A DNA stretch of 20,541 bases, taken from positions 1 to 20,541 of the forward strand of contig JAZDFI010000003.1 in assembly GCA_043808015.1 (NCBI GenBank), written 5' to 3'. The first letter of the stretch is position 1. Every line of letters begins with the position of its first letter. This document shows positions 913 to 13,336 of this stretch, in pieces. The position numbers and the translations under genes are program-made. The notes under the pieces are model-generated. The model worked only from the letters and a program-made list of their open reading frames with translations. It did not search any database and was not told where the DNA came from. The stretch comes from Candidatus Aenigmatarchaeota archaeon. GTDB taxonomy: Archaea; Aenigmatarchaeota; Aenigmatarchaeia; QMZP01; QMZT01.

Positions 913-1965
913 ATGCGGGCAGATAAAATAATAGGCAAACCCGACATCGCCAGGACAAAGGCATGGATGAGCGGCAGCGGACGCAAGATTCTCGTCTACC
1001 ACAGGGACGCCGACGGCGTATGCTCTGCTGCGTTGTTTCTCAAGTTCTTCTCGGGCTTCGAGACCCTGCCGCGCGAAGGGCCGGTCATAGACAATGATTT
1101 TCTCAAGATATTAATTGAAAAAAAGCCCGACGTGCTGGTCTTCCTGGACATACCCGTGGACCAAGAATGGAAGAAAATCCATAAGCTTCAGGAGAACGTC
1201 GCCGGCATGAAGATGATGATACTCGACCACCACATTCCCGTAAAGGACATGAACTCCGAGCGCCTGGTCCACATAAACCCCATGTTCCACGGCGACCTCT
1301 ACATACCAGCGTCGTGCGTGATGTTTCAACTGCTCAAGAGCATGGGTTTCGCCGCCGACGAATGGATGTGGATTGCCATCATCGGCCTGATAGGCGACTA
1401 CGGCATGAAGGACTGCGCCTGGATGATGCAAGAATACGATGCGAAGAAGATGGACCCGCCGTGCAAGTCGCTTTTCCGCGCGTCCGACATCATCTCGTCT
1501 TCCATAACACTCAAGGGCGCCGAAGGCGCGGAGAAGTCGCTGCGTCTCATTGTCAAGAGCCAGAAATACGACGACCTGAAGAATTCAGAAGAGCTCAAGA
1601 AATGGAATGAGATAGTCCAGGGCGAAGTCAAGAAAATAGTGGACGATTTCGAGAAGTGTAAGGAAGTCGCCGCCAAGCGCATCATATTCTACGAGATACG
1701 CAGCAAGATGAACATCACTTCGATAATAGCGACCATAACCGCGGAGAAGCATCCTGAAGCGATAATCATAATAAGGAAGAGATCAGGCGACTTCTGGAAG
1801 ATATCGCTCCGCTGCCAGGAAGGCAACGTCAATGTGGGCGACCTGTCTAAGTTCGCTTCGGATGGCATAGGCTCCGGCGGCGGGCACGTGAAGTCATCGG
1901 GCGCGCTGGTCAACAGCTGGGAAACGTTCAAAGAGCGCGTGTTCCTTTACCTAGAAAAGGCCTGA
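913..1965 (+). CDS. DHH/DHHA1 family phosphoesterase (RecJ/NrnA-like)
   Basis: Motifs YHRDADG, FLD, ILDHH, GLIGD and the C-terminal DHHA1 GGGH; TATA-like TTTAAAAA about 25 nt upstream. Confidence 0.9.
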   Translation: MRADKIIGKPDIARTKAWMSGSGRKILVYHRDADGVCSAALFLKFFSGFETLPREGPVIDNDFLKILIEKKPDVLVFLDIPVDQEWKKIHKLQENVAGMKMMILDHHIPVKDMNSERLVHINPMFHGDLYIPASCVMFQLLKSMGFAADEWMWIAIIGLIGDYGMKDCAWMMQEYDAKKMDPPCKSLFRASDIISSSITLKGAEGAEKSLRLIVKSQKYDDLKNSEELKKWNEIVQGEVKKIVDDFEKCKEVAAKRIIFYEIRSKMNITSIIATITAEKHPEAIIIIRKRSGDFWKISLRCQEGNVNVGDLSKFASDGIGSGGGHVKSSGALVNSWETFKERVFLYLEKA

Positions 1966-2042
1966 AAACGAACCTGAAAGGCTTTAAAAATCCTCTTTCT
2001 ATAAGTTTTTACTATAAAGTGACAAATATATATTGTGATATT

Positions 2043-2894
2043 ATGTGGAAGCGCGCCAGAAAGGACCCTTGGAAAGTTGCCCTTGAAAAATACGGCGATA
2101 AATTGATGGACCCCCGTGAAAAAATTGACATAACCATCGGGGAGGAGGAAGCGCCCAAAAGAAAATCCAAGGCGCCTGTTTTCCTGTTTCTTCTCGGTTT
2201 GCTGGCGTCTAACAGGATGATAAGGGACCCGAAAGGCAGCGTCCGGACAATCGATGAATTCAGGGGACCAGTTCCCGACGACGTCGCCGCGGCCAACCCT
2301 GAGGTGCACGGCATCGAAGGCGTGACCGAAGACGTCGCGAGGAACATATACGCATGGATTAAGAAATACAACGGCGGCGAATACGTCAACAGTAATACAG
2401 GGGATGTCCGCATTCTTTACAAGCTCCTGCTGAACGACCCAAAGACCGCACAGAAGCTCCTGCGCGAAACGAGGAAGAGCAAAACCCTCATTAAGCCGGA
2501 GGACATGCAGTTTCTTACGTTCGGCTCGGCCATAGACTACGGCCACAGCGGCGACATGACGCATCTGATAGAGCAAAGCGGCATAGACGACAGGACAAGG
2601 GAAAGGCCGCAGAGAATACTGGACAAATATTACCGTTCGCTGCCAGCTTATCTGCAAAACGTGAGAGACGTCGTTGCGGAGCATCTCATGAACGGCGACC
2701 ACTCCCCCATTTATGCAGCTGAAGTCAAAAGGGTATTCGGATACGGCGAAGATGACGGACTGTTCGACGTGGACGTATACACGGTAAAGAACGAGATGAG
2801 AAAGCTCAGGTTCTACATCAAGAACAATAATGTGCGCGGCTGGTGGATGCTTTCCGAAGACGGAAATTCCATTGCGACGGATTTCAGTTTTTAG
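2043..2894 (+). CDS. Hypothetical protein with a single hydrophobic anchor
   Basis: Long ORF with host-like codon bias. ATG 2043 preferred over GTG 2019 because it follows an AT-rich TATA-like segment. Basic patch (PKRKSK) then hydrophobic PVFLFLLGLLA. Confidence 0.65.
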   Translation: MWKRARKDPWKVALEKYGDKLMDPREKIDITIGEEEAPKRKSKAPVFLFLLGLLASNRMIRDPKGSVRTIDEFRGPVPDDVAAANPEVHGIEGVTEDVARNIYAWIKKYNGGEYVNSNTGDVRILYKLLLNDPKTAQKLLRETRKSKTLIKPEDMQFLTFGSAIDYGHSGDMTHLIEQSGIDDRTRERPQRILDKYYRSLPAYLQNVRDVVAEHLMNGDHSPIYAAEVKRVFGYGEDDGLFDVDVYTVKNEMRKLRFYIKNNNVRGWWMLSEDGNSIATDFSF

Positions 2895-3034
2895 GCGGAT
2901 ACTCATACGTTTGTACTATTTCCAGTCACCCCGTCAGACCCACCCCCCCGTTCCTGAACATTAACCGTTTGTTATGCCGGGAAAAAAACGATATAAAATT
3001 TTATATGAATATACTATTTATTCTGTCGCTAGCG

Positions 3035-3862
3035 TTATTCGCCCGTGTTTATGAACGTAGTAGTGTCGTAGCCATCGAAAGCGTCGCGGCTGCCGGGATA
3101 GTCGCCGGTCGTGCTGTCAATGACGATATAGAAAGAGTCGATGTTCTTGCCCATCTCAAGTGTCTTCTGGAGCGTCTCGCACTCCTTGCTGTTCTCGCCG
3201 AAAACGACGAAGTTGAACGGCTTCTCGCTGAAGTACGGCGTATATCGCTCGAGTATGTTCTTGTAGAACTTCAGGAACGAGTCCAGGTCCTGCTCCACCT
3301 TCAATATGACGAAAACGTGGCCCTTGTCAGGCCTGTAAACTTCGACGATGCTGGCGTCCATGCCTATCGCCTCATACATGCTGGCGAGCAGTATCGAGTA
3401 GTCGTCACAGTCGCCTCCCATCGCATCCCACGTTTCCATGGGAGTCGCGACGTACTCGTCTTTCCTCGGGTCGGAGACATAATATATCCTGTTGGAGACC
3501 TCGTTGTAGACGCCGAAGACCTTTGTCGCCGGCGCGTTGGGAGCGGAATATTTGACCACGGACTTGACGGCTATGTTGCGCACCGCGCTCGTGTTGACCT
3601 TTGGCGAGAACTCCTCGTCATTCTCGAACGTCACGTTCCAGAAGCATCTCCACTGATTGCGAAAGGTGATGGGCTCCTTGCAGTAACAGGTGTTCTCGGT
3701 CACGTAAGCGACCTCGCCTTTCTGCGAGCACATCTTGTTGCACTGCTCCTCGACGGAGAGCGTCGCCCCGACCAGCGATTCCTCGATGTACTTGAGTTCG
3801 AAAGCCAGGCCTCCGAGCAGGACGGCGACTATGAGAACGAGAATCGCCTTCTGCATGTCCAT
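3035..3862 (-). CDS. Membrane-anchored/secreted transglutaminase-like (Cys-His-Asp) protein
   Basis: GGDCDDYSILLASM (catalytic Cys), GHVF (His), VIDST (Asp); N-terminal hydrophobic helix KAILVLIVAVLLGGLAF. Start at ATG 3862 or 3856. Confidence 0.85.
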   Translation of the reverse strand: MDMQKAILVLIVAVLLGGLAFELKYIEESLVGATLSVEEQCNKMCSQKGEVAYVTENTCYCKEPITFRNQWRCFWNVTFENDEEFSPKVNTSAVRNIAVKSVVKYSAPNAPATKVFGVYNEVSNRIYYVSDPRKDEYVATPMETWDAMGGDCDDYSILLASMYEAIGMDASIVEVYRPDKGHVFVILKVEQDLDSFLKFYKNILERYTPYFSEKPFNFVVFGENSKECETLQKTLEMGKNIDSFYIVIDSTTGDYPGSRDAFDGYDTTTFINTGE

Positions 3863-3882
3863 ATTAAATATTTGAGCGGCTC

Positions 3883-3902
3883 TTATAAAAACGGTTTTAT
3901 AA
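3883..3902. promoter_or_regulatory. Back-to-back TATA boxes of a divergent promoter (transglutaminase-like gene / nop5)
   Basis: Inverted repeat TTATAAAA-ACGG-TTTTATAA gives TTTTATAA on each strand, 20-32 nt before each start codon. Confidence 0.65.
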
Positions 3903-3933
3903 AACGCGAGCAAATATACTATAAGTGATTTTC

Positions 3934-5034
3934 ATGAAAGCATACGTTGCGAATAACATTGCGGGCGTGTTCGCCTTCGACGAGCACGGCAAGGTCATAG
4001 CCATGAGGCTCTTCCCGAAAGACGCGGAAGCGATAGCCGAGCGGCTTGATGCATCGAGAGCCGGCGGCCTGATAGACGAGGAGCGCGCCGTCCTCGAGGA
4101 GCTGAGACGAAAGGGAATCGTCGAGATAGTCATGGACAAGAGCGCGCGCATCGATGGTCTCAGCATAACTGTCGAAGCGGAACACAAGGGCAAGAAGCTC
4201 GCCTCCGATGATTTCAGGAAGCTCGCCGCCGAAGCGGAATGGATAGTCACGCCCGCCCAGATGAACATGATCATGAGCAAGGTCAACGTCATCCTCGCCG
4301 GCAGGAAGATAAAGTCCGTCAGCAAGGACAAGGTCATAATCCAGGTAATAGGCGTCGTTGACGAGCTCGAAAACGACCTCAACTCGCTTTACGAGCGCCT
4401 GCGAGAATGGTATGGACTGCACTTCCCGGAACTATCTAAGGAAATGAAGTCGCACGAGCGTTTCGCTGAAGTCGTGCAGAAATACGGCTCCCGCGATAAG
4501 ATAGACGATGCCCAACTGGTCAATCTGGCATCCAGGTCCATAGGCATGAGCTTCAACGACGAAGATGCGGCCGTCGCTTCTGCGTTTGCCAAGTCAGTTC
4601 TTGAGATGACGAAGACCAGGGAAAAACTGTCCAAGTATCTCGAGCTCGTGTGCGGCGAGACCATGCCCAACCTTTCGGCGATAGCCGGGCACCTGCTGGC
4701 AGCGAGGATGGTCGCCCAGGCCGGCGGGTTGGAGAAGATAGCCAAGATGCCGAGTTCGACGATACAGCTTCTCGGAGCTGAGAAAGCGCTGTTCCGCCAT
4801 CTCAAGGGGCAGGGCCGCGCCCCAAAATACGGCGTGCTCTTCGGACACCCGCTCATACAGCAGGCGCCGAAGCATCTAAGGGGCAAGGTCGCGAGGCTCA
4901 TCGCCTCCAAGCTCTCGCTTGCGGCCAAGATGGATTTCTATTCCAAGCGCGACGACAGCAAGATGATGAGAGGGGACATGGACAAAAGGGTCCAGGCGCT
5001 CATCAAAGGCTCTGGCGGAGATGAAGGTCAATGA
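3934..5034 (+). CDS. nop5: Box C/D RNP scaffold protein Nop5 (Nop56/58)
   Basis: ERLREWYGLHFPEL, MPSSTIQLLGAEKALF and PKYG motifs. ATG 3934, alternative GTG 3925. Confidence 0.95.
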   Translation: MKAYVANNIAGVFAFDEHGKVIAMRLFPKDAEAIAERLDASRAGGLIDEERAVLEELRRKGIVEIVMDKSARIDGLSITVEAEHKGKKLASDDFRKLAAEAEWIVTPAQMNMIMSKVNVILAGRKIKSVSKDKVIIQVIGVVDELENDLNSLYERLREWYGLHFPELSKEMKSHERFAEVVQKYGSRDKIDDAQLVNLASRSIGMSFNDEDAAVASAFAKSVLEMTKTREKLSKYLELVCGETMPNLSAIAGHLLAARMVAQAGGLEKIAKMPSSTIQLLGAEKALFRHLKGQGRAPKYGVLFGHPLIQQAPKHLRGKVARLIASKLSLAAKMDFYSKRDDSKMMRGDMDKRVQALIKGSGGDEGQ

Positions 5035-6044
5035 AAGCCGGAAGAAAAGACGAGCACGTTGACCTGGAAAAGAGGGTCTTCGACGTCACGAACGAGCGAA
5101 TGCCCGGAGGGGCGTGGTGGTGGTGGTTCTGGCTGTTTTTCTTCGACAACCCGAAAGACCCGTCCAAGCCCCGCCAGCTGATGATACTGTGGTCCGCCAA
5201 GAACGTGAAGAAAATAAACTGCAACAATCTCAACATAAGCGTGAAGCTGCCGCTTGACAAGGGGAATCTCGATGGAGCCGTCGCAGCCTGGTATTTCGAC
5301 GGCGAGCGGATGCACCACAACTTCCTTCTGGAGCAGTGCAACATAAAGGTCAGCGAAAGGGGATTGTCGTCCGAGTCCGGAACGCCGACATCATTCTCCA
5401 TCGCCGGAAAGAAAAGCGTGGTCAGGATAGGCGATAAATTCGAGTTCATCGCTGTCGAGAGCGCTAGCGACGAGTTCAGAAAGGCATGCTATCACAACAG
5501 GAATTTCATAGGGGACAAGGGATATTCGATAATGAAGGTCAATCACGCCAACCTCACGGGAAACGTGGACGGCGAAAAGATAAACGGCTCAGCGTATTTC
5601 CAGAGAGTCTTCGTAAACGCCCCGGCCATACCGTGGTACTGGGGCATATTTCATTTCGACCGCGGGGCCGTCATGACATACACGAACCACATGGTGCTCG
5701 GAAAATCCATAAGAAAGGACATATCGCTTTTCGACGGCGAGCGTGTGCACAAGTTCGACAGCATCAAAGTGAAAAGGTCCGAAGCGACGCTGCCAACTTT
5801 CAGGATAACTGGAGAGAATGAACAGGAAAGGATAAACTTCTCCGTCGTATCGTACGCGCATTCCTCATGGACTTTCCGCAAGAAGTCACGCGGCGTAATA
5901 CCCAACAAGCTCGTTTACAACGAGTATCCGGCCACCATAACCGACATCGAGATTGAGGACAAAGCGACCGGGGCGAAGGTCACGTCAAAGGAACTCGGCA
6001 GGGCCGTCGGGAACGCGGAGCACGCGACTGGTATGCTTTTCTGA
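5031..6044 (+). CDS. Hypothetical Trp-rich, beta-rich protein (possible AttH/tocopherol-cyclase-like fold)
   Basis: 337-aa ORF overlapping the nop5 stop (ATGA). AWWWWFWLFFF and a second PWYWGIFHF repeat suggest a duplicated beta domain; the fold is inference. Confidence 0.7.
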   Translation: MKAGRKDEHVDLEKRVFDVTNERMPGGAWWWWFWLFFFDNPKDPSKPRQLMILWSAKNVKKINCNNLNISVKLPLDKGNLDGAVAAWYFDGERMHHNFLLEQCNIKVSERGLSSESGTPTSFSIAGKKSVVRIGDKFEFIAVESASDEFRKACYHNRNFIGDKGYSIMKVNHANLTGNVDGEKINGSAYFQRVFVNAPAIPWYWGIFHFDRGAVMTYTNHMVLGKSIRKDISLFDGERVHKFDSIKVKRSEATLPTFRITGENEQERINFSVVSYAHSSWTFRKKSRGVIPNKLVYNEYPATITDIEIEDKATGAKVTSKELGRAVGNAEHATGMLF

Positions 6045-6075: not shown

Positions 6076-6834
6076 ATGCGCAGACGAGACTTCGTTATAG
6101 ACACATCATCCATTCTTGCAAGTTTCGTGTTCGGCTTTGCTGGCGAACAGAAAGCCGCTCCCGGCACGATTCTCGTTGCCAACGTGCCTGACTTCACCAT
6201 GGAATTGCTCGCTGACGGAAGGTCTGTTAAAAAATACGAAATTTCCGTGGGAAGGCCGGAAACGTCCACGCCTTTGGGCGAATATTCCATACTAACGAAG
6301 GCCAACTGGGACAGCCAGTTCGCCGGAACGTGGATGAGGTTCAAGGAAAACGGTGAATTCGGGGGGTGGGGAATCCACGGTTATCCGCACAGGGAATTTA
6401 ACGGCCATGCCGTTTCCCAGGGATGTATAAGGATGCTGCCTGAGGAGGCCGAAGAGTTGAAGAAAAGCGTTTCTGTTGGAACGCCGCTGATAAACGTTTA
6501 TGAGATTTTAATCCCGGGCGAAGAATTTTTGGAACTGTGCTCGGACATATACGGTCGTGTAAAGAATCCCGAGGATAAAATATCTTTGCTGATGACTGAT
6601 AGAGGCCTTAGATTAGACAAGCCCAAACTTGCAGACAAGTTGAACGAATGGGCGGATAAAACGCAAAAATACAGGATCACCCAGAAGGCGTTGTACACAA
6701 AGTACATAAAAAATCTCCCACCCGACCAGATGCATCCAAATCTTATAAAAGACAATCCGGAAATAATGGAATATCTCGATATTATGAAAAATAATTCAAA
6801 GACATACCTGCGAATAAACAAAATCGTTTCCTAG
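6076..6834 (+). CDS. L,D-transpeptidase catalytic-domain protein (YkuD/ErfK family) with Tat-like N-terminus
   Basis: YEISVGRPETSTPLGEYSI and GIHGYPHREFNGHAVSQGCIRM (His...SxGC); N-terminal MRRRDFV followed by a hydrophobic stretch. Confidence 0.85.
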   Translation: MRRRDFVIDTSSILASFVFGFAGEQKAAPGTILVANVPDFTMELLADGRSVKKYEISVGRPETSTPLGEYSILTKANWDSQFAGTWMRFKENGEFGGWGIHGYPHREFNGHAVSQGCIRMLPEEAEELKKSVSVGTPLINVYEILIPGEEFLELCSDIYGRVKNPEDKISLLMTDRGLRLDKPKLADKLNEWADKTQKYRITQKALYTKYIKNLPPDQMHPNLIKDNPEIMEYLDIMKNNSKTYLRINKIVS

Positions 6835-7518: not shown

Positions 7519-8403
7519 TTATCTTTTCTTTTCCGCGCGCCTGCCTAGAAAAAATATATAGCTCAGCAGGACCTGCACCAGCTTCGCCGCCAGGAAATCC
7601 GGCGCCTTGTTGCGCTCGTCCGGGCAGAGCTCGACGACGTCGAAGCCGACGATGTTCTTCTTCTCGACGACTGCGCGGAGCAGACGGGTGACTTCATACC
7701 AGCCAAGGCCGCCAGGTTCCGGCGTCCCTGTAGACGGCATGATGCCGATCTCGAAAACGTCGAGATCGATGGTTATGTAAACATTATCCGAGAGCGAATT
7801 GACTGCCTTGCTTATCCAGTCGTCCCTGCCGTGGATTTCATGCGCGTAGAAAACCTTGTCTTCATCCAGGCTTTCCATCTCGGATGAGTCGAAGCTGCGT
7901 ATGCCGACGGAGACGACTTTTCGCACGCTCTCCTTTGCGCGCGCTATTACGCAGCCGTGGTTGCATCTGCTGCCATGGTATTCGTCGCGCCTGTCGCCGT
8001 GCGCGTCCAGATGGAGGACGCTCAGACCAGCGAACTTCTCTGCGTGCGCGCGAATCGGGCCTACCGATATCGAATGCTCGCCGCCGAGCGTGACTACGAA
8101 CTTGCCGTCCGCTAGCAGCGCTTTCACCCGCTCATACGTGTCTTTAATCATGCTTTCCGGTGTTTTGGAAATGACGGGCTTGTCGGTGTAAATGCCATTG
8201 TCGCAAACCTCGGCCTTTGTCTCAGGCTCGCAGTACTCAAGATACCCGGAAGCTGAAACCAGGGCTTCAGGACCTTTGTCCGCCCCTTTCATCCACGTGC
8301 TTGTGCCGTCGAAAGGCACCGGAAGTATTGCTATCTGTGATTTTTTATATCCAGAATACGCCGGTGGAAGGTTCATGAATTTGCCGGAAAAACCGCTTTT
8401 CAT
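7519..8403 (-). CDS. speB: Agmatinase / N1-aminopropylagmatine ureohydrolase (arginase family)
   Basis: GGEHS, DAHGD, TIDLDV, TGTPEPGG and DVVEL metal-binding motifs; polyamine gene context. Confidence 0.93.
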   Translation of the reverse strand: MKSGFSGKFMNLPPAYSGYKKSQIAILPVPFDGTSTWMKGADKGPEALVSASGYLEYCEPETKAEVCDNGIYTDKPVISKTPESMIKDTYERVKALLADGKFVVTLGGEHSISVGPIRAHAEKFAGLSVLHLDAHGDRRDEYHGSRCNHGCVIARAKESVRKVVSVGIRSFDSSEMESLDEDKVFYAHEIHGRDDWISKAVNSLSDNVYITIDLDVFEIGIMPSTGTPEPGGLGWYEVTRLLRAVVEKKNIVGFDVVELCPDERNKAPDFLAAKLVQVLLSYIFFLGRRAEKKR

Positions 8404-8427: not shown

Positions 8428-8994
8428 TTATTGTTCGGGAGCGACGGTTGCGGGCGGCACGAAAACCGCGGCGCATATCACGCTCGTCCACAGGCCGTCC
8501 TTGTGGCCTTCCGCGGACTGGCATATGTGCGTCGTCTTGAATATGTGCCCGCTCGCCTTGTACTGCTGCCTTCTTTCGTCCCATGCCTTGTCCGCATCAA
8601 AGGGAACGCCCAGCGTCGTGGCAAGCATCGTGGCCGCGAGGTCCTCGGCGTATTCGCCGGCTTTCTCGCCCTTCTCGCCGAATCCGTGATGCTCGGAAAG
8701 ATAACCATAATGACCCCTGTCTTTGGGCAGGGCAAGGCCTATGGCCACCGATATGAGCCTGTTGGGCTCGTTAGTGTCCGTTCTCGCCATCACGCAAAAA
8801 ACCACTTCGCCCGGATTGAGGTGCTTGAGTCCCTGGTCCCTTGTGACCACTTCACAATTTGGCGGCAGTATGCTTGAAACGTTCACGAGATTGAAGGGCT
8901 CTATGCCCGCGTGTCTCAAGGCGGCTTCGAAAGAAGCAAGCTTGTCCTTGTGGACGCCTACACCCTTCACGAAAAAAACTTTCGCAGGTATCAT
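8428..8994 (-). CDS. pdaD: Pyruvoyl-dependent arginine decarboxylase
   Basis: SFEAALRHAGI, FNLVNVSSILPP (Ser-Ser autocleavage site), GYLSEHH, AEDLAATMLA. Confidence 0.93.
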   Translation of the reverse strand: MIPAKVFFVKGVGVHKDKLASFEAALRHAGIEPFNLVNVSSILPPNCEVVTRDQGLKHLNPGEVVFCVMARTDTNEPNRLISVAIGLALPKDRGHYGYLSEHHGFGEKGEKAGEYAEDLAATMLATTLGVPFDADKAWDERRQQYKASGHIFKTTHICQSAEGHKDGLWTSVICAAVFVPPATVAPEQ

Positions 8995-9075: not shown

Positions 9076-9918
9076 TCAGCCGTAAAGGGCCTGCGCCAGG
9101 AAATTTGGCAGCTTGAACGCGGCTTTATGATAGTCGGTGTTGTAGCACTTCAGGCCGGGTATCGCTATCGTTCTCGGGTTCTCCGGGTCGTGCTTCTTGG
9201 AGCCGATAATCAGCGGCCATGTCGTGCCGTACGCCGGTATGTCGCACAGGTAAACCCTGGTTATGGGGAAGAACTGCGACACTGGAACGAAAGAATATTT
9301 CTTTATCAGGTCCGCCCTGAAGAACTTGCAGCCTCCCTGCATCGAGAATACGCCGTCCGGCTTTAGCGCCGTGAAAAGATTCTTGAAGAAAGCCGGATTG
9401 TAAAGAGCCTTGGCCTCGTCCATTATCGGGTCGGTCAGGTCGAGAATTATCACGTCGAACCTGTTCCTGCATTTTGCCATGTAGTCCGCGCCGTCTCCGA
9501 CTATGACTTCTGCGCGCCTGTCATCGAATGCCCCGTTGCTGAGCGACGGGAGGAATTTCTTGGAAACCTCTATGACCTTGCCGTCGAGCTCGACCATGAC
9601 CACCTTCTTTACAGGATGCTTGAGCGTCTCCCTCAGCGCGCCGCCGTCGCCCGCGCCGACTATCAGCACTTCCTGCGGGTTTGGGTGGGTCGCCATGGGA
9701 ACGTGGACCAGCATCTCGTGGTAAAGGAACTCGTCGAACTCCGTGGTCTGGAAACCGCCGTCGAGGATGAGCACGTTGCCGAACTCAGGGTTGCGTATTA
9801 TCTTTATGTCCTGGAACCTGCTTTTACCGTCATAAAGCTTCTTTGACACCCTGAAGCTCACGCTGATAGTGTCTTTTGAATCGACTTCCCTGAACCAGCC
9901 ATCATTCGTCTCGGGCAT
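9076..9918 (-). CDS. speE: Polyamine aminopropyltransferase (spermidine synthase family)
   Basis: SRFQDI, LDGGFQTTEFDEFLYHEMLVH, GAGDGG, VELD, FDVIILDLTDP, IPAY..W. Confidence 0.95.
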   Translation of the reverse strand: MPETNDGWFREVDSKDTISVSFRVSKKLYDGKSRFQDIKIIRNPEFGNVLILDGGFQTTEFDEFLYHEMLVHVPMATHPNPQEVLIVGAGDGGALRETLKHPVKKVVMVELDGKVIEVSKKFLPSLSNGAFDDRRAEVIVGDGADYMAKCRNRFDVIILDLTDPIMDEAKALYNPAFFKNLFTALKPDGVFSMQGGCKFFRADLIKKYSFVPVSQFFPITRVYLCDIPAYGTTWPLIIGSKKHDPENPRTIAIPGLKCYNTDYHKAAFKLPNFLAQALYG

Positions 9919-9923
9919 CGCCT

Positions 9924-10283
9924 CTATTTCCTTATGATTTTTCTAGCGACCGATTTCTTCGCCTCGAAGAACTCCCTGGTGAACTTTTCGACGTTCTTGT
10001 CGTTGAACGGCGCGCAGCTGAAAATGTCTATATGCGCAGACAATCGCTCTTCGGAGAAATGCCCTACGATAGAACTTACCTCGATCAATTGCATGAACGA
10101 GTATCCTGTAAGGTGCTCCTTGCCATAACGCTTGAGAACAGGTTTACCCTCACGCTTTACTTTTAGAACATCAGCGCATAAAACGCGTATAAATTTTTCA
10201 ATGTATTCTCCGCTTCTTATTTTTTCATATTTGCATCCGTATAAGTCAACACATAACTCCCAACCAAATGGTTTTTTGCTCAT
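9924..10283 (-). CDS. speD: S-adenosylmethionine decarboxylase-family proenzyme (short, non-ESH type)
   Basis: GWELCVDLYGC, GYSFMQLIEVSSIVGHF, AHIDIFSC; Shine-Dalgarno-like GGAGGTG/GGTGA upstream; 5 nt from speE. Confidence 0.85.
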   Translation of the reverse strand: MSKKPFGWELCVDLYGCKYEKIRSGEYIEKFIRVLCADVLKVKREGKPVLKRYGKEHLTGYSFMQLIEVSSIVGHFSEERLSAHIDIFSCAPFNDKNVEKFTREFFEAKKSVARKIIRK

Positions 10284-12174: not shown

Positions 12175-13248
12175 TCACTTCTTCTTCGCCGAGGCGAAAA
12201 TCCAGTTGGCGCAGTAGGATGGTATGAATGACGACGAGAAATTGACGTCGATGAAATGTTTTTTAAGTATGCGCTTTATCATCCTGAACGTCTCGTAATC
12301 GAACTCCGTACCGCACTGCACCGTCACCATGCCGCCGCTGTTGAGGCTTTTCTTTATCCTCATGAAAAGCTTCGAAAGATACGCTTCCCTGTCTATTTTT
12401 ATGAAGGCCTCCGGGTGTATGGTGAGGTCGTAGATGACGGCGTCGTATTTCCTGCTGCTGGCCACGACCCTGTACGCATCGCCGATTGTGACCTTTACTT
12501 TCGGGTTCTTGAAAACGTTCCTGTTAATCTTCCTCAGGTATTTTTTCGAGACGGCTATGACTTCCTTGTCTATGTCGACAATCGCGATTTTCTTCGCGCC
12601 GTTCTGCATGAGCTCCGCGGCCGCGGCGCCGTCGCCTCCGCCCAGTATCATGACTTTCTGGAGGCTGTTGCCGGACGCGACGAGCGGCATGACGAGGTTC
12701 TTCGTGTACGAATTCGCATCCTTCTCCGCTATCTGCACGTCCTTGTCGAGGAGCAGCATGCGGCCGAAGTTGTCGTTTTCTATGATGTCTATCTGCTGGA
12801 ACTTCGAGCGGCTGCTGTGGACGACTTTCTTGACGTGGTAGCGCACCTCGAAGCCGACCGTCGAAAAACCCTCCATCCAGTCCGCGTACTTTATCTCCAG
12901 CGGGTTCCCTCTGCACACGTGGCCGACGCGCAGCGTCTTGGGTTTTAGCTGTTTCTTGAGATAGTTGAGAAGCATGAACGGTTTTTCCGGGCCGGGCGAG
13001 CACGTGAATATGTCGACTGACGCGTGCCTCGCCTCAGGGTAAGTGTGTATCGCGATGTGCGACTCGCTTATTATGGCGAGGCATGTGATGCCCGCAGGGT
13101 TGAACTTATGTGTGTGAATGCTCACGACCGAGAGTCCTGCGTTCGTTATGCCGTCGCTGAGAATCTTTTCGATTTTTTCCTTGCTGTTGAGAACGTCTTT
13201 AGAACAATATATGAACTCGGCGATTATGTGGTGACCAGTTGGCCTCAT
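12175..13248 (-). CDS. AdoMet decarboxylase-aminopropyltransferase fusion (SpeD-SpeE type, spermine-synthase-like C-terminal domain)
   Basis: N-terminal GHHIIAEF, HKFNPAGIT, ISESHIAIHTYPE, VDIFTC; C-terminal SKFQQI, ILGGGDG, VDID, YDLT, IPSY..W, all in one ORF. ATG 13248 lies about 23 nt after a TATA-like TTTTATAC. Confidence 0.92.
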   Translation of the reverse strand: MRPTGHHIIAEFIYCSKDVLNSKEKIEKILSDGITNAGLSVVSIHTHKFNPAGITCLAIISESHIAIHTYPEARHASVDIFTCSPGPEKPFMLLNYLKKQLKPKTLRVGHVCRGNPLEIKYADWMEGFSTVGFEVRYHVKKVVHSSRSKFQQIDIIENDNFGRMLLLDKDVQIAEKDANSYTKNLVMPLVASGNSLQKVMILGGGDGAAAAELMQNGAKKIAIVDIDKEVIAVSKKYLRKINRNVFKNPKVKVTIGDAYRVVASSRKYDAVIYDLTIHPEAFIKIDREAYLSKLFMRIKKSLNSGGMVTVQCGTEFDYETFRMIKRILKKHFIDVNFSSSFIPSYCANWIFASAKKK

Positions 13249-13336
13249 AGCATAATAATGCAAAGTGTAGTATAAAAAATTTCCACGGGAAATTTCAGCA
13301 TGTTTTCCGGAAAAACTGGTCAAATGGACTCGTGAG

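Follow-up and report, generated by a model that had tools for sequence, protein, structure and literature searches.

Does an archaeal gene that resembles animal spermine synthase encode a working two-in-one polyamine enzyme, what would such an enzyme make, and how did an archaeon come by it? These questions are raised by a 20,541-nt stretch of DNA from a Candidatus Aenigmatarchaeota archaeon (contig JAZDFI010000003.1 of assembly GCA_043808015.1; hereafter, the window), in which an S-adenosylmethionine decarboxylase (AdoMetDC) is fused to an aminopropyltransferase. The host is a member of Aenigmarchaeota (DPANN), and its assembly, G000, comprises 934 kb at 90.7% completeness. A preliminary description, made from the DNA sequence, viewed the gene as a self-sufficient tetra-amine synthase close to the ancestral state of the animal enzyme. 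On balance, we favor the reading that its product is a functional polyamine enzyme with two activities, a member of the known AdoMetDC-spermine synthase fusion family; the mechanism proposed below follows from its conserved residues and from characterized relatives. The fusion is probably an archaeal, horizontally acquired, and bifunctional member of that family, and within one Aenigmarchaeota genus it holds a stable place in the polyamine locus. The concept put forward in the preliminary description is right, but it had already been published for bacteria (PMC12803844).

The gene is a single open reading frame (ORF) without interruptions, and its product contains three Pfam domains. In the N-terminal part, the AdoMet_dc domain covers residues 7–114 (E 1.8e-31); this part scores 107.1 bits with TIGR03330, the NCBIfam equivalog model for AdoMetDC, against a cut-off of 75.65, and residues 1–116 match AdoMetDC from T. 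maritima in the PDB (1tlu). Ser63, His68, and Cys83 (T. maritima numbering) are essential for self-processing and catalysis in AdoMetDCs, and true AdoMetDCs share a completely conserved Pro (PMC10407285). S63, H68, C83, and this Pro are all present in the fusion, the translation of which contains the strings ISESH...HTYPE...DIFTC, DKDVQIAEKDANSYTK, KKYLRK, IYDLTIHP, and IPSYCANWIF. The decarboxylase domain reads ISESHIAIHTYPE...DIFTC, with the pyruvoyl-forming and catalytic residues intact. Thus, the earlier statements that this is a single-ORF archaeal fusion, that its E-S-H pyruvoyl site and DIFTC cysteine are preserved, and that its decarboxylase is apparently intact all hold. An in-frame TTG 75 nt 5' of the ATG would give an alternative protein of 382 residues, 25 residues longer; we favor the ATG, because the N-terminus that it yields fits the family, where M1, P3, and G5 are near-invariant in 118 homologues. 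The TATA-like run ttttttata upstream of this ATG is possibly an archaeal promoter, in which case the fusion mRNA would be leaderless.

A word-indexed search identified 403 homologues of the fusion, far beyond chance. Both Pfam domains were found in every one of the best 120 of these sequences, which are 48–73% identical to the fusion; the closest named relative, at 73% identity, comes from a Candidatus Aenigmarchaeota metagenome-assembled genome. The family alignment was built from 118 of the 120 after two sequences shorter than 340 residues had been dropped. Residues S63, H64, H68, T69, P71, E72, and D79 of the decarboxylase and GGGDG (203–207), D227, Y273-D274-L275-T276, P279, and Q311-C312 of the transferase are invariant in this alignment, C83 is kept in 117 and E62 in 114 sequences, and the fusion has every one of these residues. 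It also keeps D257, Q172, and Y181. D206 and D274, both present in 118/118, are aligned with human spermine synthase at its two catalytic Asp motifs. A scan of 1.84 billion representatives yielded 138 matches at E ≤ 1e-30. Among the best 150 representatives (50% identity), 110 had both domains, 26 had the transferase only, 12 had the decarboxylase only, and 2 were partial; given that 110 two-domain proteins of 25–50% identity occur in this set, the fused architecture is broad.

The transferase half differs from canonical spermidine synthase, SpeE, a copy of which is encoded nearby in the window. The two proteins share the fold and the motifs that bind decarboxylated S-adenosylmethionine (dcAdoMet), but they are 30% identical, and the fusion falls below the cut-offs of the NCBIfam SpeE equivalog models (NF002010 and TIGR00417; 157.1 versus 260 and 139.3 versus 249.55 bits). 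The window's SpeE reads DEFLYHE and DLT..DP; the fusion has neither DEFLYHE nor the second Asp of DLTDP (it reads YDLTIHP), which bears out the departure from SpeE noted in the preliminary description. In a transferase-domain tree of 90 rows obtained by a quick search, an 82-row fusion-type clade was separated from canonical SpeE with a Shimodaira-Hasegawa-like approximate likelihood ratio test (SH-aLRT) value of 99, and the window's own SpeE fell in the outgroup; the C-terminal domain of the fusion does not group with ordinary SpeE. Both domains of the fusion are under strong purifying selection: in comparison with the 95% identical orthologue from G003, a genome of the same genus, the ratio of nonsynonymous to synonymous substitution rates (dN/dS) was 0.077 for the whole protein, 0.067 for the AdoMetDC domain, and 0.084 for residues 117–357.

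AdoMetDC-SpdSyn fusions were reportedly described by Green et al. in 2011. Fusions from Candidatus Pelagibacter, in which an AdoMetDC is likewise joined to an aminopropyltransferase, are bifunctional: the decarboxylase and the transferase are both active, and spermidine together with spermine or thermospermine is produced in E. coli (PMC11107197). More directly relevant is the work of Li et al. (Journal of Biological Chemistry [JBC], December 2025), who found that, among bacterial proteins, class 1b AdoMetDC-aminopropyltransferase fusions are most closely related to animal spermine synthase, and that a horizontally transferred fusion of this kind entered animals, where its decarboxylase function was subsequently lost (PMC12803844). 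They tested a delta-proteobacterial protein of 358 residues (MBW2649524) and a Candidatus Krumholzibacteria protein of 376 residues (MCK4773364). Both complemented an E. coli speD mutant and made spermine and some spermidine, with spermine:thermospermine ratios of ~10^4 and ~60, and the delta-proteobacterial enzyme was a highly specific spermine synthase (PMC12803844). Their screen covered bacterial proteomes only, and the text of the article mentions archaea three times, in no case in connection with fusions (PMC12803844). We found no further reports of archaeal fusions in a literature search that ran outside the JBC supplementary tables, where archaeal homologues are possibly listed.

The archaeal fusion resembles these bacterial proteins in domain order, length, processing and catalytic residues, and in belonging to the same aminopropyltransferase clade. 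Two homologues in our set with the taxon labels and lengths of the tested proteins, P0115 ('Deltaproteobacteria') and P0053 (Krumholzibacteria), are 48% and 52% identical to it, respectively. On the other hand, its host is an archaeon, it is placed in a distinct, supported sub-clade (96/93), it and its nearest relatives have Ala or Val at a position that is Glu in 95 of the 118 aligned homologues, and it scores lower against human spermine synthase (75 bits versus 91 and 104 bits for the two bacterial fusions).

How close, then, is the fusion to the animal enzyme? An AlphaFold2 model based on the 118-sequence alignment had a mean predicted local distance difference test (pLDDT) score of 88.8 and a predicted template modeling (pTM) score of 0.66, with low confidence in the linker at residues 115–133. 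A Foldseek search of the PDB with this model returned chains of human spermine synthase (3c6m/3c6k) at ranks 1–7 and 9. The top six chains aligned over 364–372 columns spanning both domains (best E 5e-28, template modeling scores of 0.56–0.60, 25–26% identity), and the next matches were single-domain spermidine synthases aligned over ~240 columns. Among solved structures, human spermine synthase thus matches the two domains together best. The root-mean-square deviation between the two is ~9 Å, which can be attributed to domain orientation that differs or is uncertain in the model. The human motifs that the preliminary description had listed are also confirmed: the HMMER alignment of the Krumholzibacteria homologue to 3c6k_A prints the strings gdvnlaesdlaytra, kkymrktcg, vindltavp, and vpsylelwvfyt in the human chain. 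The fusion and the animal enzyme share the motifs around both catalytic Asp residues, the KKY(L/M)RK stretch, the C-terminal PSY..W.F stretch, and a three-part fold that consists of an AdoMetDC-like N-terminal domain, a β-strand domain, and a Rossmann domain. They differ in the N-terminal domain, which in animals no longer has the sequence or activity of an AdoMetDC but in the fusion is intact (107 bits, all catalytic residues kept), and they are only 25–29% identical.

The suggestion that the fusion stands especially close to the ancestral state of the animal enzyme was not borne out. Our trees cover archaeal and bacterial rows, and closeness to animal spermine synthase was judged by relative scores in PDB sequence searches. 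In these, 3c6k ranked 17 of 32 (75.2 bits) for the fusion (P0001) and 30 (66.6 bits) for its Aenigmarchaeota relative P0002; in contrast, it ranked first for both P0053 (91.3 bits) and P0115 (103.8 bits). With an unfused gammaproteobacterial relative as the query, 3c6k ranked 10. Searches with parts of the fusion placed 3c6k at rank 12 for the linker region and gave only spurious immunoglobulin-receptor matches for the C-terminal 62 residues. The active site of human spermine synthase contains the acidic residues Asp201, Asp276, and Glu353 (review PMC13700777). The fusion has equivalents of the two Asp residues (D206 and D274), but not of the Glu: the family motif FCENW is paired with YLELW in the human enzyme, where the Glu is Glu353 (a numbering that presupposes a tag of 15 residues in chain 3c6k_A), and the fusion has Ala at the corresponding position 347. 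It is alone in this among the 118 homologues, although the G003 orthologue, which is outside that set, likewise has Ala. Finally, the archaeal sub-clade nests in bacterial diversity, which also argues against a special ancestral position.

The rarity of the fusion in its own phylum speaks for its having come from bacteria. Among 40 relatives of the host, full-length copies were found only in the window's genus, in three of the four other species (genomes G001 to G004), and in none of the 18 genomes that represent the rest of the family or the 18 from the remaining families of the order. A survey of 371 genomes of the phylum gave 9 matches at E ≤ 1e-40, of which 7 were fused (one of them only 33% identical) and 2 unfused. 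Across 185,579 species genomes, a full-length fused ORF is present in 43 of the 80 loci that were kept; these are almost all bacterial, from at least 10 phyla, with the cultured Syntrophus buswellii and a Melioribacter among the hosts. In a careful full-length tree of 55 rows, a split supported at 97/95 parts 11 rows from 41 bacterial and 3 other archaeal rows. These 11 include the window, G003, G004, and G001 (all of one genus), G330 (from another family of the order, with a protein identical to an Aenigmarchaeota-labeled one), four proteins of unknown origin, and one distant long-branch fusion. This tree was built without the duplicates L005 and L007, L053 (internal gap), L090 (branch length 7.15), and P0053 (transferase part identical to L021). 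Across our trees, a long branch of 0.28–0.36 leads to the window and G003.

When 33 distant fused representatives were used as an outgroup (87 rows, L103 dropped), a 10-row Aenigmarchaeota-type clade was recovered at 96/93. In the careful version of this tree it joins Syntrophales fusions (80/30) and then another Thermodesulfobacteriota fusion, inside the bacterial radiation; the key node has support of 91/85 only, and the bootstrap of the tree had yet to settle fully. The quick tree contains the same 22-row group (SH-aLRT 97). All five rows labeled Deltaproteobacteria fall in the Syntrophales clade, and we infer that the tested delta-proteobacterial fusion belongs there as well. Because the fusion is rare in the phylum and nested in bacterial diversity, transfer from bacteria is favored; the most likely donors would be relatives of Thermodesulfobacteriota, and the tree favors vertical descent within the genus after the transfer into Aenigmarchaeota. 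Two other placements were rejected. A basal position of the Aenigmarchaeota rows was seen with the distant archaeal fusion L103 as the sole outgroup, but both SpeE outgroups and the 33 fused representatives place these rows inside bacteria. A common archaeal origin for every archaeal copy failed an approximately unbiased test in which the ten archaeal rows, a group named post hoc, were held together (p 0.0003). The other archaeal copies are elsewhere in the tree: those from Methanobacteriota and G231, and a 'Heimdallarchaeota' protein (on 2-kb contigs), which lies inside a Nitrospirota clade.

In addition, 26 unfused proteobacterial and Balneolota aminopropyltransferases nest in the fusion-type clade of the transferase tree (L063–L091; e.g., L077 5986–6708). 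They come from Ectothiorhodospiraceae, Balneolota, Lysobacteraceae, Alcanivorax, and other taxa, and their position suggests that the decarboxylase domain was lost secondarily.

The fusion is part of a polyamine locus (Table 1). On the minus strand, the order of genes is agmatinase, pyruvoyl-dependent arginine decarboxylase, SpeE, a SpeD-like protein, the fusion, and gyrB, with the oppositely oriented genes for MgtC and a Na/Ca exchanger just ahead of the fusion. The only two Spermine_synth and the only two AdoMet_dc matches in G000 are all at this locus. The SpeD-like protein, encoded directly upstream of speE, retains the Ser, His, and Cys residues but has no Pro in the HT(Y/W)PE motif, and V-S-S replaces E-S-H. 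Only 18 homologues of it were found, one of them named Pacearchaeota. We consider it fairly likely to be a neofunctionalized ornithine or arginine decarboxylase. If the SpeD-like protein is not an AdoMetDC, the N-terminal domain of the fusion is the sole one in the genome; it is probably the only true AdoMetDC of G000 and would then feed SpeE too.

The locus of G004 contains the same gyrB, fusion, Na/Ca exchanger, MgtC, arginine decarboxylase, agmatinase, and fibrillarin genes, arranged as in the window. The speD-like and speE pair (window 9076-10283) is present in G000 and G003 and missing from G004 (L017 7075-8896), and it looks like an insertion between the genes for MgtC and arginine decarboxylase. 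In G001 (84% complete) and G004 (88%, 4 contigs), the fusion is the only Spermine_synth and the only AdoMet_dc match; G002 lacks both the fusion and any AdoMet_dc match. Pyruvoyl arginine decarboxylase, agmatinase, and deoxyhypusine synthase were found in all five genomes of the genus, and a pyridoxal phosphate-dependent decarboxylase of the ornithine, arginine, or carboxyspermidine (diaminopimelate) type in none of the five. Modification of archaeal aIF5A needs spermidine (PMC11107197). Because deoxyhypusine synthase is present and the fusion is the sole transferase in G001 and G004, the gene content implies that there the fusion must at least make spermidine. A second paralogue of deoxyhypusine synthase is located in the polyamine locus of G001 (G001:C27:6832-7776) and G002 (G002:C7:2932-3861) and may be a SpeY-type homospermidine synthase; its presence means that the variable module of the locus differs between species.

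Table 1. Features of the window (strand relative to the contig; residue numbers are those of the fusion protein)
Feature	Position	Strand	Basis or remarks
AdoMetDC-aminopropyltransferase fusion, whole ORF	12175..13248	-	357 aa + stop, uninterrupted, ATG start
Class 1b AdoMetDC domain, residues 1-116	12901..13248	-	Pfam AdoMet_dc, NCBIfam TIGR03330, PDB match
Glu62-Ser63 codons, predicted self-cleavage site (Ser63 to pyruvoyl)	13060..13065	-	family conservation; residue roles from PMC10407285
Interdomain flexible linker, residues 115-133	12850..12906	-	pLDDT <50 at 115-122 and 129-133 (AlphaFold2 model)
Aminopropyltransferase N-terminal β-strand domain, residues 124-175	12724..12879	-	Pfam Spermine_synt_N, E 6.6e-14
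Catalytic Rossmann-like aminopropyltransferase domain, residues 192-355	12184..12675	-	Pfam Spermine_synth, E 1.3e-30; GGGDGA, DID, YDLTIHP, SYCANW
TATA-like run ttttttata, ~26 nt 5' of the fusion ATG	13271..13279	-	read from the sequence
Agmatinase (arginase family)	7519..8403	-	TIGR01230, 208.3 bits vs cut-off 174.3
Pyruvoyl-dependent arginine decarboxylase	8428..8994	-	Pfam PvlArgDC, E 3e-62; NF009064, 213.5 bits vs cut-off 207
Canonical spermidine synthase SpeE, 2.3 kb from the fusion	9076..9918	-	NF002010, 305.5 bits vs cut-off 260
Divergent SpeD-like pyruvoyl protein, 119 aa	9924..10283	-	Pfam AdoMet_dc, 53 bits; TIGR03330, 23 bits vs cut-off 75.65
YkuD L,D-transpeptidase domain ORF	6076-6834	+	E 1.4e-17
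ORF without Pfam match (one of three, 319-361 aa)	1947-2906	-	
ORF without Pfam match (one of three, 319-361 aa)	2843-3928	+	
ORF without Pfam match (one of three, 319-361 aa)	5031-6044	+	

The window also carries genes for fibrillarin, Nop5, PolB, and gyrase, and no tRNA genes or Rfam families were found in it. The YkuD domain is of a bacterial cell-wall enzyme type, here in an archaeon. The first of the three ORFs without a Pfam match overlaps a 291-residue ORF on the opposite strand, which makes the coding strand uncertain.

Taken together, we envisage the following mechanism. The N-terminal domain would cleave itself between Glu62 and Ser63 to form the pyruvoyl group and would then decarboxylate S-adenosylmethionine; the C-terminal domain would pass the aminopropyl group to putrescine and then to spermidine, giving spermidine and, most likely, spermine. 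Putrescine would be supplied by the adjacent pyruvoyl arginine decarboxylase and agmatinase, and the dcAdoMet made by the fusion would also feed the nearby SpeE. Both domains are very probably active. As for the main end product, we lean slightly toward spermine; 'tetra-amine synthase' is a label that we infer from relatives of the tested bacterial enzymes.

Several observations weigh against this assignment. Neither published accession (MBW2649524 or MCK4773364) was among the 19 clusters that we looked up, and the identity to a characterized enzyme is thus indirect. The top PDB sequence matches of both the fusion and P0002 are broad-specificity or agmatine-type aminopropyltransferases from Pyrobaculum (7xif) and Thermus (3anx), not spermine synthase. 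The equivalent of Glu353 is Ala in the fusion and Val in its nearest relatives, and four positions that are near-invariant in the 118-member alignment have changed (G208A, M277I, N182T, and C313G). The transferase domain evolved faster on the branch of G000 and G003, the one that carries the extra speE. Lastly, S-adenosylmethionine synthetase, whether of the bacterial or the archaeal type, gave no match in G000. This gap probably reflects the incomplete assembly; the bacterial-type enzyme is encoded in all four relatives, G001 to G004 (e.g., G003:C6:160544-160960), and the archaeal type in none of the five genomes.

The loss of the acidic residue from the spermidine pocket and the 7xif and 3anx matches would fit a transferase that acts in the archaeal sub-clade chiefly as a triamine synthase, converting putrescine to spermidine with little or no tetra-amine. 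In a variant of this reading, agmatine would be converted to N1-aminopropylagmatine and then to spermidine by the neighboring ureohydrolase; most spermidine synthases that were tested also aminopropylate agmatine (PMC11107197). In G001 and G004, moreover, the fusion is the only aminopropyltransferase found, and the deoxyhypusine synthase there calls for spermidine. However, the second Asp of DLTDP, which belongs to the putrescine site, is also absent (YDLTIHP is similar to human VINDLTAVP), and G000 already has a canonical SpeE for spermidine. The Syntrophales clade lacks the Glu as well (it has T, S, or V), yet the tested delta-proteobacterial fusion, presumably a member of it, is highly specific for spermine (PMC12803844). 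We therefore regard the triamine reading, its agmatine variant included, as rather unlikely. Quite unlikely, in our estimate, is a shift in specificity after G000 and G003 gained speE, with thermospermine, norspermine, or a longer or guanidino-polyamine as the product. Its appeal is that the transferase diverged disproportionately on the exact branch that has the speD-like and speE pair: G000 and G004 are 87% identical in the AdoMetDC domain and 65% in the transferase, as opposed to 72% and 69% for G004 and G001 (and 71% and 62% for G000 and G001). The long branch to the window and G003, the substituted near-invariant positions beside the dcAdoMet and amine sites, and the precedent of coral homologues of animal spermine synthase that became thermospermine synthases (PMC12803844) agree with it. 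Nevertheless, neither the catalytic Asp residues nor the motif set as a whole has changed, we identified in the fusion no residue that is known to turn spermine into thermospermine specificity, and the fast divergence would fit past relaxed constraint, since ended, equally well.

One could also imagine the mirror image of animal spermine synthase: a protein in which the decarboxylase half alone matters, as the AdoMetDC that serves SpeE, and the transferase is dead or structural. The SpeD-like protein does look neofunctionalized, given its low TIGR03330 score and missing Pro, the N-terminal domain of the fusion is possibly the sole AdoMetDC of the genome, and the transferase scores well below the SpeE cut-off (157 versus 260). 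But dN/dS is equally low for the transferase (0.084) and the decarboxylase part, GGGDG, D227, D257, D274, Q172, Y181, and Q311-C312 are all kept, and no other transferase was found in G001 and G004, which makes this explanation highly improbable. A broader scenario, which we consider unlikely, would combine some of these elements: the Aenigmarchaeota sub-family would be a self-contained module for spermidine and a tetra-amine in genomes of ~1 Mb, and in G000 and G003 the gain of speE and of a SpeD-derived amino-acid decarboxylase would have freed the transferase for a new product, with the N-terminal domain as the sole source of dcAdoMet for two transferases.

On the favored reading, that of a working two-in-one enzyme of the known family, the bacterial AdoMetDC-spermine synthase fusion, the published ancestor type of the animal enzyme, would also have moved into archaea. 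The picture of the origin of animal spermine synthase is unchanged by the archaeal fusion. The family offers a natural series for the role of the Glu353-equivalent residue in substrate choice, with Glu, Val, Ala, Thr, or Ser at this position, and the comparison of G004 with G000 and G003 asks whether a fused transferase changes its product once a second transferase arrives. The recipients of the fusion include DPANN archaea with very small genomes, in some species of which no other route to aminopropylated polyamines was found.

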